DNA from: Spirochaetia bacterium
Lineage (GTDB): Bacteria > Spirochaetota > Spirochaetia > DSM-16054 > Sediminispirochaetaceae
Direction of reading: 5' to 3'
Assembly (NCBI GenBank): GCA_034520965.1
Contig: JAXHMY010000009.1
Coordinates: forward strand, 1-64,000
DNA: 64,000 bases
Shown: in pieces, positions 2,930-10,352 of the stretch
Numbering within the stretch: position 1 is the first letter of the stretch
How the letters are laid out: every line of letters starts with the position of its first letter
The notes under the pieces: model-generated
Databases searched by the model: none
Told to the model about the DNA's origin: nothing
The model's input: the letters and a program-made list of their open reading frames with translations, nothing else
Program-made: the position numbers and the translations under genes

Positions 2930-3474
2930 TTACTATACCTAAAATTTTAGAGTTTTTTTCTTTTTTTTTCAAAATGGTGATGCTATAATGTCGCTCGTCA
3001 TACAAAGTTTTCTAGATTAGCTCAAGCTATTAGGATGAAACACCTACTATTGGTGTAATGAGTTATAATAACAACCAAAAACATCCATGATGAAAAGTAA
3101 TGCTGCTCTAAGAAGCCGAATATGTCAAGCATAAAATGACAGCATAAAATAGACTATTCAAAAGCAGCTAAGTAGAAAGTCATTTAATGGACTTTTCTAC
3201 TCCTGCCCTCCTATTTGAAGATAAGGCATTATGATGAGGAACAATTTATAACTCCCCCTACTTCACTATATTAGTAACAAAATCTGCTGAAAGCTTGCCA
3301 GTAATTTCAGTTGTTTCTGTGCAGTCAACGGAAAACCATTGCTCTATGGGCGGGTTTTAACTGTTTTACCGCACTCGAATGGAACAATGAGTGTTAAAAA
3401 CACCATATTTCATTGCACTGCTACTATATTGACCTCCTTAGGCTTCAAAAAAAGAAGTTTTTCAGGGTGGGACT

Positions 3475-3702
3475 ATGTCAAAAAAAAATTCTCCTCGTAG
3501 AAGGTGAAACCCTCATTGCAATGAATGAAGCCCAAATGCTCAAAAAGCATGGGTATGAGGTGGTAACCGTTTATAATGGTTAGAAGGCTATCGAGGCGGT
3601 AGACTCAGACCCCGAAATCTCTCTCATCCTCATGGACATCGACCTCGGAAAGGGGATGGACGGAACTGTAGCGGCCGAGGAAAAAAATCAGCATTGCACA
3701 TG
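3475..3702 (+). pseudogene. Truncated response-regulator receiver fragment
   Basis: Manual translation MSKKILLVEGETLIAM..GYEVVTVYNG*KAIEAVDSDPEISLILMDIDLGKGMDG, with an internal TAG and a frameshift, then abrupt end. Confidence 0.7.
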
Positions 3703-3857
3703 ATAGGTGAAATATATTGTTTAGGATAAGGGCCGTTATCGGCAAGGGCCTGGCTTAAGCTGGTTCTTTGGAAGAGAAACCGCAGTCATGCATGCTTAAG
3801 AGAAGGAATAATCAAGGTGTTTTGTCTTGATAAAATAAACTTTATTTGGAAGAAATA

Positions 3858-4800
3858 ATGAAAAAAAACATAATTTTATTATCAATTACGTTGATAGTCT
3901 TAGTCACAGGATGCAATTTGTTTATAAGCAGTTTGGTTATGAATGAGCTTGGAGAAGAAACATCGGAAAAGTAATCGACATAGCGGAGATACCCGGCGTA
4001 ACAGCACCGGCTATCGGTGAAACACCAGTAACAGAAATTACCGATACAGCTCAGTACACAGGAACCGTTTCATGGGAACCGGACGATGATCCTTTTGAGC
4101 ATGGAACTAAGTACACAGCGACGATTACGCTAACAGCCAAAGATGAGTATACTCTAAGTGGTGTAGAAGAAAACTTTTTCACTATTGATGGAACAGATTC
4201 CGTTTCAAATGACGCGGATTCAGGTGTGGTAACGGCGGTATTTCCGGCGACAAAATATGCCTTGGGTGATTTTGATATAGGCGACGATGGTCCTGCCAAT
4301 GGCATTATTTTTTGCGTTGATACAGCAGATGAACATGACTGGATATATCTTGAAGTAGCCCCTGCATCAACCGAGTGGACAGATAAAGAATGGGTGATTA
4401 TGGTACAGAAATAAGCGGCGACGCAGCTTTAACTGGTATTGGCGATGGGCAGGCAGCAACCACAGCCATTGTGCAGCATTTAGCAGACAATACAAGTGAA
4501 ACAGGCAGAGCTGCACAGCTTTGTGACGGCTTGAAGCATGAACATGAAGGAACAACATACAAAGACTGGTTTCTGCCGAGTAAGGATGAGCTGTATGCTA
4601 TATGGGACAATATAGTGGATGACGGCAGTGGAAGTAATAGTGGTGTTGGTGGGTTTGCCAATGAGGGCTATTGGTCGTCGTCCGAGCTAGATAGTGACTA
4701 CGCGTGGGGCCAGGTTTTTAGCAGCGCCTTGGGCGGCGGCTACCAGGACGGCGGCTATAAATCCAACGACGGGCGGGTTCGGGCTGTTCGGGCTTTTTGA
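3858..4800 (+). CDS. Lipoprotein: signal peptide II, Ig-like stalk, C-terminal DUF1566/Lcl C-type-lectin-like domain (two frameshifts near 3970 and 4392); candidate DGR target
   Basis: MKKNIILLSITLIVLVTGC lipobox; GVTAP..TAQYTGTVSW..YTATITLTAK stalk; IGDDGPANGIIF, DWFLPSKDEL, YWSSSE..AW..F..VRAVRAF*. Confidence 0.8.
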
Positions 4801-5117
4801 TCTAAGACGGTATTCTGTCAGAAGACTAACCGGGACACTTAGCTCAGTCAAATTATGTACTACAATTTTCATATTACATAAGTGGCAGTTATGTAATATG
4901 TTATATTTCTACTACTTCATCTATCTCTTTCATTTTCCTATCGGTTTCAGTAAGTGCAACTATTATTTTTTGGTAATGGAAGATATCATCAGTAGATAAA
5001 TCACTTTAGATAATTCCAAGCACCTTATGTAATCAATAAACTTTAAAGACATATTTGCCATTATCTTCCTGTTCAATAGATATATAGTCTATTCCAGATG
5101 TTTTATTCTACTTTTAT

Positions 5118-5312: not shown

Positions 5313-6842
5313 TTAGTCGATTGTTTTTATAATATCCAAAATTTTCTTATATGCATCATTGCTTACATCTATGGGAATAGCTCCCACACCCTTGATCTTT
5401 TGTTTTTTTAATATACTTTCTTTTGACAACAATTCTTTTTTTGGATATTCTTTTTGATAAAATGCGAACTTGCTTCCTGGATACAAAATCATTGCAATAT
5501 CAGCGCCATATATAGCATCTAAATAACTGTGCATTTTATCAATATCATTATACTTAAAATTAATATTTATCTTATCATCACTATCAATATTTGCGTTTTC
5601 ATTTAAATTCAAAGAATTTTTAAATTTCGCGTCAAGTAAATAGTATTTTTTGTTTTTTTGTATAGTGATATCAGGTCTAAAATTATGAGAATATGATTCT
5701 TTCCGGTTTTTACTAAAGGTTCGATTATATGATACCTTATAATTACTATTTTCAATTGTATATCCATATTGTATATTTTTTTCTTTCTTATTATATGCAG
5801 GATATATTAATTCCTTCATCAAATAGCATATTTGCCACTTTAAAGAAAGACCATAACTCAAATATTGTAGAAACTTTTTTTAGTCCAGATTTCTGATGAT
5901 ATTTTTCTATTTTTTTGAAAATACTAAAATGACCTTTTTTACTGTTTAGATAATGTAATAACATTTCCCTATATCCTGCTTTTGACAATAATACTGTAGA
6001 ATATTCAGGAAGCAAACTTAATTTTGGTAAATGGTTAAACATTGGATTGTAAAGAAATCTTTTTACTATATGACTTACTTTAATAGAATCATTATAAAGT
6101 TTTGTATTTGGAAAAGATGTTGCAATTAAATTACATGTATTATATATTTCCTCTAAGAAATATTTTATTAAAAGCATTTTCTTTTGTATCATAATTGTAT
6201 CTATGTTTGTTAATAACTTTCTCAGATAGATAATACTTTCCATTTTTGTTTTTGCCATAATTTATTTTACCTTTACTTATTTTCCTTTTTGTCGCCTTTA
6301 TATTTATTCTTCCTTTTTTGTTAGCACTAACCATTTGGTTATCGTTGTAAGACCTTTTATGAGGCTCATTAATTATTAGATTAAGAAATGTTTCAATGTT
6401 CTGTCCAATGGATAATCTAGTGATCTGTTTAATATTGAATCTCCACTATTGTTGCTAAAGAATAATTTTTATGCAGTAAATTCTTATAATAGTAGACAGG
6501 TGTATCATATTTAAAACTTATACTACTTATCTGCTTGTTAATTTCTTCAACAATTCTGGTATATTGATTTTCTCCTACATCATCTTCAATGAACTTGCTT
6601 GTTCTTAGGTCATAAGTTATATCAAATAGTTTTAAATAACCAACATAGTCTCTAATTCTAAGTTTAGCAAAATTATTTCCTGGTATATAATCAACCGCTT
6701 TATCTAAACTATTTTTGTACAATTCATCTATAATGCTTTTGCTTTTTTTATTTCTTAAATCGATGTAATACGTTTCATTTTCATATAAAATGTTATTTTC
6801 TATTGGTATTGATAGCTTTTTATCTTGGTATATTATTTGCAT
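5313..6842 (-). CDS. McrC-like DUF2357 + PD-(D/E)XK nuclease, split by frameshifts
   Basis: Fragments with YDTKEN, YREM, IFELWSFF and C-terminal RPDITI..YYLLDAKFK..DIDKMHSYLDAI..ILYPG; immediately downstream of the McrB-like gene. Confidence 0.75.
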
Positions 6843-6843
6843 A

Positions 6844-8450
6844 TTACTCGATATAGTTTGTGAATCCGTTTGCAAAAACATTTTTATACATTCTCTTTAG
6901 TTTTGCTATGCTTAGATGAAAATCCATTGTAGTTACTTCTTCAATATTATCGATACTAATATCTTCAAAATCAGTCGTTTTATCAGATAGATAGTAAATA
7001 AGCTCTTTTAAGGGCGCTTCAAGTTTGTTATACGTTCCATTTAATTTTGTAAGTATTTTCTGTAAAATTTGTTGGTCTAACGCTATAACTATAGTTTTTT
7101 CTTCACCGTCTACATATTTTATTGTGTTATTGATATATTTCGATATTTCATTTATTACTCTATAACCAAAATGTAAATTATTTTTTTTAAGAAGGGATAC
7201 GATTTCTTTTAGTTTTTCTTTTACTAAACTATCTGTTTCAATAAAATCATTTCTTGAGCAAGGGAGGCTTTACCAAATACAGGCATTTCATTCAAAACAA
7301 AATCACTTTTTTTTTCTTCAGACTGCGAATAATTATTCTCATATCCATCAATATCTACTTCATTAAATTCTAAAACATTTGCTCTATCCAAAACCTTTGG
7401 ACTAAACATATATGTGGTTTCATCTATATTTACCGTACCCGTAATGTACAAATTATCGGGTATATATATCTTTTCCACTTCTTCAATTAAAGAGTCATCG
7501 GCTTCAACAGGATTAGAATGAAGAGTTACAGGTTCTTGAACACTCTCTCCTTTATCGTTTAAGTATTTACTTTCCATAACGCTTAGAACATCGCTAAAAT
7601 AGTATTCTACCTTTGATAAATTCATTTCATCAAAAATCAAGAAATACGGTATATCAGAGTTTTCATTTGCTTCAAAAATAAATTTTAATATTTTTGTTAT
7701 ATGATATTTTCCAGAAAATGAGTCATAATATCCAAACACATCTGTTGCATCAACCCAATCGCTGCGAACTGATACAAAACACTGATTATTTAACTTCTTG
7801 CTTTCTAGTTCATTAGAGATCTGTAAAAAGTATTTATTTGTACTTTCACTTTGGCTTAATATTTTAAATGTATTTTCCTCTACTTTTTTTAGCAATAGTT
7901 TTGAGTTAACTGAATAATTTGTTCTAAAATAACTACGACTGTCAAATGTATCTTTATCAGTATTCTTTGATTTGAGCCTTATTCTCAAAAGTGGATTACT
8001 TGCTCTTTGTAAATATATTTGAATAGGTATTTTTTCATCGTCTTCTGTTACTAAAATTATTTTTTTTGGTTTAGTAATATTGTCTTCTTTACCCTCTTTT
8101 TTTAATGTCTCAATTCTTCTATCTATCTCTCCTAACTCTCGTTCATTATAAAGATTATCTCTATAGCGATATTGCATATTACCCCTTCCACCTCCATCAA
8201 TCATATTTTTTGTAATATTAATAACGACATCATCATCGTTAACAGTCTGTGATTGACTAAAAATGTCTATTAAAAACTTATTTATTATTGGTTGAAATAG
8301 TTGTGCAATCTTTGTTTTTCCTGTGCCAGATATTCCAGATAAAATAACGAATGGTTTTGTGTGTAGACTCAGACAGTATCTTGTTAATATTTCATCAGAA
8401 AAAAAGAAGCCATTCTCTTGATAAAAATCAAAAAACTTTTTTATATCCAT
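6844..8450 (-). CDS. McrB-like AAA+ GTPase (NxD type), frameshift near 7240
   Basis: Walker A GISGTGKT, VSVRSDW, Walker B FDEMNLSKVEYYFSD, GTVNIDETTYMFSPKVLDRAN; second frame HFGYRVINEI..QKILTKLNG..GFTNYIE*. Confidence 0.85.
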
Positions 8451-8463
8451 TATTTATCACCTC

Positions 8464-10352
8464 TTAATAACCTATAAATATATACTCGGAAACACTATTA
8501 TTATTGTTATTAATTTTATGTTTATGATTTCCAAAAGAATATTTGTAATCTAACTCTATTACTTCAACATGTTTTTTACTTTGGGCTAACAAATCTATCA
8601 TTTCTTCTAAACTAGGTAATGAATTCGATGAGTATGATATCAACAAAATACTATCAGTGTATTTCTTAAACAAATCACTAAAGGCGCTATAGGCACCAAC
8701 CTTTGATGAGAAAGGTGTTGGATAGTTTCTTATTTTCTTTGTTTTAGTCTCCCACTGAATTTCAACATCTTTCCAATCACAAGCTATTCCTTCAAGAAAA
8801 TGATATCTTCTTACGTATTCATTATCTGAATGTTTACTGTAATAGGGAGGGTCCATATATACTAAATCCGCATCAAAATTAAAATTCATAGCATTTTTAT
8901 TTACAGCAAAATTAGTGTTCTTATTATCAAAAACTGCAAAATTTAATGTTTTAACAGCTTCCATAAAATGTTCGCTTAAAGAAACCTTTAAATCTTTTCT
9001 ACCGTCATCATATTTATACCCAGTGTACGTAAAAATTCCTCTAGGTCTTTTTTTTAGACAGGCTCTCATTAAAGCTGCTTTTGCAATAGAAATTTCATAT
9101 TTATTATTTAGTTCTTTTATATTGGCTCTAATATTATCAATTATTGCATTATCGTAATCTTTAAAATATAAACCAGAAAAATTATTTTGAACAAAAAAAT
9201 CATTTTTTGTAGTGTTGCTACTCATCAATTCTTCTGCCATCTCTATTGGGAGTATATTATTGTTATTCTCTATCAAAGCAGTCGATATATGATAATTCAT
9301 TGACATATAGTCATTACTTATCACTTTCTTATTTTCAGTTTTGAATGCATAGCTTACAACTCCAGACCCTGAGAAAAGGTCTATTACACTTTCATATTGA
9401 AATTCTCTTGCGATTGATATGATATTTCCTATAATTTTTGATTTAGAACCCATAAAACGTGTCGGTGGATATTTCTTTAGTTGACTAGAAAGAGTAATAT
9501 TTTTATTAACTAGAAAAGACTTTCTGTAAGGATTGGCTGTAATAACAACATCTTCTCCAACTCTTTTCTTACCATGACTATTGATATTTCTTCTTGTAGA
9601 AAACACTTCCACTTTAATTTACTATATAATTCATGTACCAAAGGATGATTGGAGTTAGTCAGTACCACATAACATCCCATCTGATACATATCATCAACGA
9701 CTTTGGCCAGTTCAATATGGTCTTCTTTATAAAACTGCTCTTTTGTATATCTCTTAAAATCACTATATTTAGATACAGGAAGGTATGGAGGGTCTAAATA
9801 TATAAAATCTCCTTCAGTAGCATTTGAGTATAAAATTTTTTTATAATCATCACAATTAATACTAGTATTTTGTAGTAGATTAGACACAGCCCGTAAATTC
9901 TCTGCATCACAAATATTGGGATTTTTATATTTACCATATGGAACATTAAAAAAACCTTTACGATTCACTCGATACAAACCATTATAACATGTGCGATTAA
10001 GAAATATGGTTCTGGAAGCTTTTTCGATTTCATGTAAATTATTCTGGTTAATACTTCTAACTCTGTAATAGTATTCTTCACTATTTTCATGCTCATCTAA
10101 TAATTCAATAAGTTTTTCTACGTTGTAAGCAATTTGTTTGTAAACATTAACCAACTCAGGATTAGAATCAGATATGATAGACATTTGGGGTTGTAGAGCG
10201 AAAAACAATGCCCCTCCGCCAAAGAATGGTTCAAAATATGTATTATAACTCTCTGGCACTCTTGATAATAGGACATTAATTAGTTGTGTTTTACCACCAG
10301 CCCACTTAAGTGGTGGACGAACTTTAAGTTTTTTGCTCGCTATTGATAACAT
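8464..10352 (-). CDS. Fused two-domain D12-class m6A DNA methyltransferase (M.FokI/M.LlaI-like), frameshift near 9615
   Basis: Domain 1 LKWAGGK, EPFFGGG, YLDPPY; domain 2 RFMGSK, DLFSGSG, YMDPPY. The start of ORF 8464..9612 (EVFSTRRNIN..EDVVIT) is the normal Dam-family C-terminal tail of domain 1. Confidence 0.8.

Follow-up and report, generated by a model that had tools for sequence, protein, structure and literature searches.

A variable gene of lipoprotein type in a Spirochaetia genome as the probable leftover of a collapsed DGR cassette

Is an orphan gene that carries the adenine signature of a DGR still being rewritten from elsewhere in its genome, or is it what remains of a system that has gone? 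The question is raised by a gene that begins at position 3858 of the window, the whole stretch of 64,000 nucleotides analysed here, which is the start of contig 9 (and thus lies at a contig end) in the 3.35-Mb, 86% complete assembly of a Spirochaetia bacterium. An earlier note had described a single gene spanning 3858..4825 and proposed a remote target diversified in trans by a DGR located elsewhere. Comparison with related cassettes points to another history: as far as sequence can tell, this is most probably a DGR target whose cassette was lost by self-deletion, with the gene frozen since then in its final variant.

Structure and frame breaks of the target gene

The target gene is not one ORF. 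It runs through three frames, and its two frameshifts, both at homopolymer runs, had been missed in the earlier note. Its parts are the following:

3858..3974, plus strand: 5′ piece with signal peptide, lipobox-like motif and linker; a TAA at 3972-3974 ends the piece through the first frame break
3947..3971, plus strand: interval of the first frame break, with an A4 run at 3967-3970
3971..4393, plus strand: middle piece with a beta-rich stalk and the start of the CLec-like domain (model of homologue P0008); 69-73% identity to four intact homologues
4392..4394, plus strand: second frame break at a G3 run, which is longer in three contigs of related organisms (run X2)
4393..4800, plus strand: 3′ piece with the Lcl_C/DUF1566 (CLec-like) domain; stop TGA at 4798-4800

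The start of the gene is as proposed: the ATG at 3858 is followed by a signal peptide, an LVTG-C lipobox-like motif (Cys19) and a short linker. This motif is conserved in homologues, its Pfam match (LPAM_1) stays below the cut-off with an E of 0.041, and in this assembly the 5′ piece and the remainder lie in different frames. The C-terminal DUF1566/CLec-like domain was also borne out, Lcl_C being matched above the cut-off (Pfam E 4.9e-9). For the stalk, the Ig-like character suggested earlier found a weak match to Big_5 (E 0.0096), below the cut-off. The fold was examined on the intact homologue P0008, not on the window's own protein. Its model reached a mean pLDDT of 77.6, mostly above 90 in the C-terminal half, and the top Foldseek match was the C-terminal domain of Legionella pneumophila Lcl (PDB 8q4e; E 1.7e-5, probability 1.00, TM 0.64 on target). 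Identity to Lcl is 24%, the collagen-like repeats are missing and the adhesin_Lcl model (NF046116) scores 25.3 bits, far below its cut-off of 500. On the strength of the homologue model, the product is likely a membrane-anchored stalk bearing a CLec-class binding head.

Whether the gene is intact today depends on the two frameshifts being real or assembly errors. Four intact homologues (300-320 amino acids) share 67-73% identity with the two larger pieces, in which no further lesion is seen. To judge the background rate, we used orthologues from two same-genus genomes, for which 78 of 140 proteins passed an identity and coverage filter. Frame switches were found in 15 of these 78 orthologues (24 in 111 kb), some of which may be alignment artefacts, and two of the three group II intron RT copies of the assembly are split, so indel errors are likely common in it. 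Run X1, searched with window 3600-5100, yielded three contigs identical to 3659-3944, 3984-4369 and 4399-4849, and both frameshift sites fall in the two holes between them. The holes prove nothing and were not counted, but the coincidence may fit errors left where accurate cover was absent. On balance, we consider assembly errors the somewhat more probable origin of both frameshifts. Genuine frameshifts, which would make the gene a dead pseudogene within a decaying island, are possible but doubtful; this matter is separate from the deletion discussed below. Two switches within 0.94 kb are expected with P of about 0.02 at the background rate of this genome, and neighbouring genes are split too, among them a response-regulator stub near 3474-3700 with an in-frame stop. 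The position of both breaks at homopolymer runs, the switched orthologues and split intron RTs, and the otherwise unharmed pieces argue against it.

The variable region and related cassettes

The 3′ end of the CLec-class domain (Pfam Lcl_C; the part of the P0008 fold that matches the Lcl C-terminal domain) is where the variable region lies:

4642..4791, plus strand: variable region (VR), homologous to the template repeats (TRs) of related cassettes, with adenine-biased differences
4714..4737, plus strand: two 4-codon units against one in the TRs, a 12-nt in-frame insertion; both units are readable on the same four TR codons

Compared with the TRs of the related loci L064, L105, L026, L029 and L031, the VR is changed at 27-31 of 46-50 adenines and at 9-16 of 90-93 other bases. 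Against the L105 TR the counts were 27/46 for adenines and 9/93 for the rest, and against the L064 TR they were 30/48 and 11/91. The bias was significant for all five TRs (Fisher p from 3.5e-7 to 7.3e-10), these being heterologous TRs, as the cognate one is absent from the data. The adenine-mutagenesis signature that the earlier note had read from codon usage is thus far beyond chance against real TRs, and the details it quoted are in place: the C-terminal residues and codons, the lack of A in 4771-4799, and a GC content of 60.8% in the last 120 nt versus 45.0% at 4501-4620. The VR, which is free of stops and frameshifts, exceeds four of the five TRs by 12 nt and the fifth by 9 nt. This insertion is likely a slippage duplication whose copies mutated separately, in line with the in-frame indels beside AAC runs known in DGRs (PMC5758913). 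An alignment of the window protein with 21 homologues (22 proteins) placed hypervariable positions between fixed scaffold residues. As for variation at adenine positions within the population, the sequencing runs were covered as low-depth contigs.

Related cassettes were obtained from a metagenome scan (79 loci; the best 80 of at least 600 stretches) and from a pattern scan of genome contigs (3 loci), while the DNA context of most of the closest homologues (P0002-P0023) was absent. Loci L064, L026 and L029, from metagenomes, and L105, from a Spirochaetia MAG, share the order target-avd-TR-RT. This order was read from ORF listings in L064 and L105, with Pfam matches to bAvd and RVT_1 in L064, and from tblastn and position in L026 and L029, the RT of L029 being truncated. 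VR and TR are spaced by 693-698 nt in all four. Their VRs share the frame of the window's VR, their TRs are near-identical, and the C-terminal domain of the window gene is closely related to the L105 target. With close relatives in such cassettes and a strong adenine bias, the gene is, by homology, a DGR-derived variable gene of the CLec/DUF1566 lipoprotein type, as the earlier note had proposed. The four cassettes keep the VR tail, GC hairpin, avd, TR and RT (truncated in L029), whereas the window has only the target, with its 12 extra VR nucleotides, and 21 nt of TR tail.

Several of the collected loci are peculiar or damaged in their own way. Directly upstream of the intact DGR target of L064, a tyrosine integrase with an N-terminal SAM-like domain is encoded (L064:7071-8126), which hints at a mobile cassette. 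In L029 the TR tail is fused into RT codon 85 (L029:1386-1420). L031 has a TR and a damaged avd, hairpin and avd start being deleted and unrelated sequence following the TR (L031:918-1250). The hairpin is cut in L127, and L129 contains a TR without a close RT in the locus. Breaks in the damaged cassettes seem to cluster at the two hairpins. In L104 (9900-10020), a short inverted-repeat insertion separates the VR from a normal tail, and one query found no DGR RT in the genome of that locus.

The 3′ tail and the deletion junction

In the related cassettes, VR and TR have different tails. Downstream of the VR come an AT-rich tail, a GC hairpin (z -2.5 in L064) and avd; downstream of the TR, a tail that includes a strong hairpin (z -6.6) leads to the RT. 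The window lacks the family VR tail and GC hairpin after its stop and shows instead:

4792..4798, plus strand: VR-type end (GC then T5), left side of the putative deletion junction
4799..4819, plus strand: TR-type 3′ tail comprising the end of IMH* and the 5′ arm of the spacer hairpin, matching the L064 TR tail at 19/21 positions; forms the right side of the putative junction
4820..4900, no strand assigned: non-DGR sequence attached at 4819/4820; other contigs of the genome have related pieces (C1:4105, C1:6470 and C2:4936); contains a 12-7-12 inverted repeat at 4870-4900

The stretch 4799-4819 does not match the VR tail, and by our own arithmetic with even base frequencies its 19/21 match to the TR tail has a chance of about 4e-10 at a fixed place. 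The tail ends within the 5′ arm of the TR-spacer hairpin. Its last 9 nt could be shared microhomology instead of pure TR sequence, given that TATTCTG is present as well in the related resident segment at C2:4936. The weak hairpin that the earlier note had pointed out after the stop folds no better than shuffled sequence (z +0.44; 129/200 fold as well). As a candidate DGR hairpin it was rejected, being a chance fold made largely of that same 5′ arm. The X1 contig that spans 4399-4849 without difference indicates that the first junction does not occur in this assembly alone, with the caveat that X1 is possibly the source sample. In run X3, one contig holds 4820-4900 exactly, with other flanks.

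A TR tail in the place of the VR tail and hairpin points to a collapsed local cassette. We infer an ancestral locus of the order target-IMH-hairpin-avd-TR-spacer-RT, as in L064, L105 and L026, in which one crossover at a T4-A2 microhomology common to the VR end and the TR end would have looped out about 0.7 kb (hairpin, avd and TR) while keeping the stop codon. A second break within the spacer hairpin, at 4819/4820, would have removed the RT. These deletions may predate the arrival of the gene in its low-GC island and may have taken place in a donor. The VR would then have drifted mostly silently, the protein likely being kept as a surface-binding lipoprotein of fixed specificity. Loss of the hairpin alone is no proof of inactivity, since hairpins are present in 127 of 372 DGRs, and hence absent from most (PMC5758913), and the stem-loop is dispensable in E. 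coli (bioRxiv 10.1101/2025.08.18.670894).

If the gene were a live remote target, its VR would be rewritten in trans, from a cognate TR with the longer unit, by a DGR in DNA missing from the assembly. Non-phage DGRs do have remote targets, which likewise lack an RT beside the gene, but these depend on the genome supplying both RT and TR (Wu et al. 2018, PMC5758913). The earlier note was right that neither lies nearby, and the genome-wide search for a template-like copy beside RT or Avd that it called for came out negative in the 86% complete assembly. Neither blastn nor an adenine-tolerant scan with 40-nt tiles returned a TR copy, only A-rich noise; Avd was not found with NF033474, PF22296 or tblastn with the L064 Avd; and queries with DGR RTs matched only group II introns. 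Four RVT_1 matches correspond to three copies of one group II intron RT (C1:530074, C2:355984 and C3:55078), one intact and two split. As candidate DGR RTs they were rejected, the intact copy being a group II intron RT/maturase (TIGR04416, 370 against a cut-off of 300) and the others near-identical split copies. The missing 14% of the genome, in which a DGR could lie, limits these negative results. Avd was detected in 2 of 16 other genomes of the family, one of them of the same genus, but the RTs beside these two genes are only 29-31% identical to the RT of this clade. Among sequencing runs compared with the L105 cassette, X1 gave 7 short pieces (one contig being the window's own) without substantial TR or RT cover and X3 gave none, an absence that is not proven and was not counted. 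Run X2, from a different study and containing 0.07 of the window's words, held a related TR-RT contig from another organism.

The VR itself also bears on continued rewriting. At 7 of 74 non-adenine sites it differs from all five TRs, which are nearly invariant there, and six of these seven changes are silent. Some of the differences could be TR differences, the cognate TR being outside the data. In the four targets of cassettes with a full-length RT, 0-1 of 68 non-adenine sites had changed, and in L104 and L106 none (for this count, the longer L026 TR and one L026 VR were each shortened by a codon so that they could be aligned). The damaged loci L029 and L031 showed 6 and 4 such changes, so drift is not specific to the junction of the window. 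The excess of silent changes gives p = 0.008 at a null of 0.35 and 0.04-0.10 at a null of 0.45-0.55, if transitions raise the null. In the constant region, dN/dS was 0.16-0.46 against two relatives, which, the relatives being distant, reflects old selection and not present function. Taken together, the drifted and mostly silent sites suggest that rewriting likely stopped long ago, and the sequence comparison is suggestive of a gene kept for some time as a protein. With a genome 86% complete and a VR free of lesions, a DGR acting from missing DNA is conceivable; in view of the search results, the TR-type tail and the drift, we consider it very unlikely, and the proposal of diversification in trans is not upheld.

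The same tail could also have been written by aberrant retrohoming, with cDNA running into the spacer and the cassette being lost separately. Such an event would account for the first base of the tail, which differs from the TR at an adenine, and for the finding of the same junction in two genomes, the second being that of L106, a Fibrobacteria MAG. In L106 the VR end is joined to a TR tail with the stop kept, and beyond the tail comes the beginning of the RT, which is joined to a fragment of type I restriction sequence. That genome contains no close DGR RT but one weak 28% match. At position 4793, however, the window retains the VR-diagnostic non-adenine C to the left of the TR-type tail, where the TR has G. 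A single crossover predicts this arrangement, and it argues against cDNA overrun, as a continuous cDNA would bring the G; L106 retains the C as well. In BPP-1, moreover, cDNA synthesis begins within IMH*, with the spacer as primer (bioRxiv 10.1101/2025.08.18.670894), and the run of L106 into the RT start is what a deletion predicts. We regard aberrant retrohoming as highly improbable. That the gene is an ordinary DUF1566 protein with a codon pattern due to chance can practically be dismissed: DUF1566 genes are common (22 of 41 related genomes, many without an adjoining cassette), but nucleotide homology to real TRs with adenine-biased differences and the 19/21 match to a non-coding TR tail are not expected of one.

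Recurrence, leftover targets and genomic surroundings

The deletion reading raises the question of how often cassettes collapse in this manner. From the 110 ends listed we removed 8 TRs (at least 12 AAY) and one duplicate of the window. A TR-like tail was seen in 3 of the 101 others, namely in the window, in L106 and, less strictly, in L077. The tail classifier is crude, and by eye many rows that it called 'other' have VR-type tails. The window and L106 share the junction and the kept stop, but the L106 target resembles the L064 type and that of the window the L105 type, so the two events were likely independent. L106 also differs in its lack of non-adenine drift (0/68), which makes its deletion likely recent, and in a tail that reaches the first RT codons. 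Further junctions were found neither in viral contigs nor in 400 other genomes of the class (at most 2 mismatches), so recurrence rests on two clear cases. In both, and perhaps in L077, the junction lies at the 6-nt microhomology and not at a perfect repeat of greater length immediately upstream, in which recombination would cost the gene its stop codon. This stop-preserving junction, found twice, is the one detail that we consider worth a wider count. If stop-preserving IMH-to-IMH* deletion is recurrent, it would show concretely how binding variants made by a DGR can turn into fixed genes. A bolder reading sees in the looping-out between IMH and IMH* a switch, built into this DGR family and used repeatedly, that turns diversification off and locks in a selected binding variant, which is then kept by purifying selection, a form of domestication; this seems unlikely.

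Leftover DGR target genes are known from Treponema denticola strains that carry neither RT nor TR (Nimkulrat et al. 2016, PMC4891356). Subject to the completeness of the genome, the window gene belongs to this kind: it is likewise a target of probable lipoprotein type, its VR differs mostly at adenines from TRs of other genomes, and no RT or TR is found at home. What sets it apart is the TR tail joined to its VR, which marks the point of deletion; the portion of that paper drawn on here describes no such junctions. Our search found no published description of VR-to-TR-tail fusions; supplements lay outside its scope, and the TR-VR alignments of PMC5758913, for example, may hold cases. An orphan gene with a clean adenine signature can thus be a frozen leftover. 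The 3′ tail serves as a test, a VR-type tail with hairpin being compatible with a remote target and a TR-type tail pointing to a collapsed cassette. Such a test costs little and lends itself to large-scale use on orphan DGR targets.

The same genome contains two more DUF1566 genes. The first (L109, C1:94200-94860) has a repeated stalk, a family-type VR tail and a GC hairpin (z -3.85), with no avd seen downstream and many non-adenine differences from TRs, and is likely an older leftover target. The second (L110, C7:160700-161300) is a lipoprotein paralogue with an apparent frameshift near its 3′ end and without a DGR-type tail.

GC content is 27-38% over the first 24 kb of the window, against about 48% for the whole genome, and this low-GC island encodes RadC, two D12-class methylases, PD-(D/E)XK nucleases and a protein that weakly matches DUF2357, in agreement with the defence/mobile setting proposed earlier. 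Just downstream of the target gene, the perfect 12-bp inverted repeat with a 7-nt spacer at 4870-4900 (z -7.0), which has a half copy at C1:6470, may be a recombinase or repressor site. The short intergenic segment 4820-4870 and its relatives (C1:4105, C1:6454 and C2:4936) lie near the starts of three contigs and are possibly a repeat family that breaks the assembly; response-regulator paralogues are clustered at the start of C2 and the end of C5. Response regulator, histidine kinase and DUF2357-like genes in 1-2520 and 5313-8450 are apparently split over several ORFs, through assembly errors or island decay. On the minus strand, 5313-10352 encodes the two D12-class adenine methylases, a 408-aa ORF and DUF2357-like and PD-(D/E)XK ORFs, likely a restriction-modification cluster, in which the 408-aa ORF (no Pfam hit at 0.001) is presumably McrB-like.
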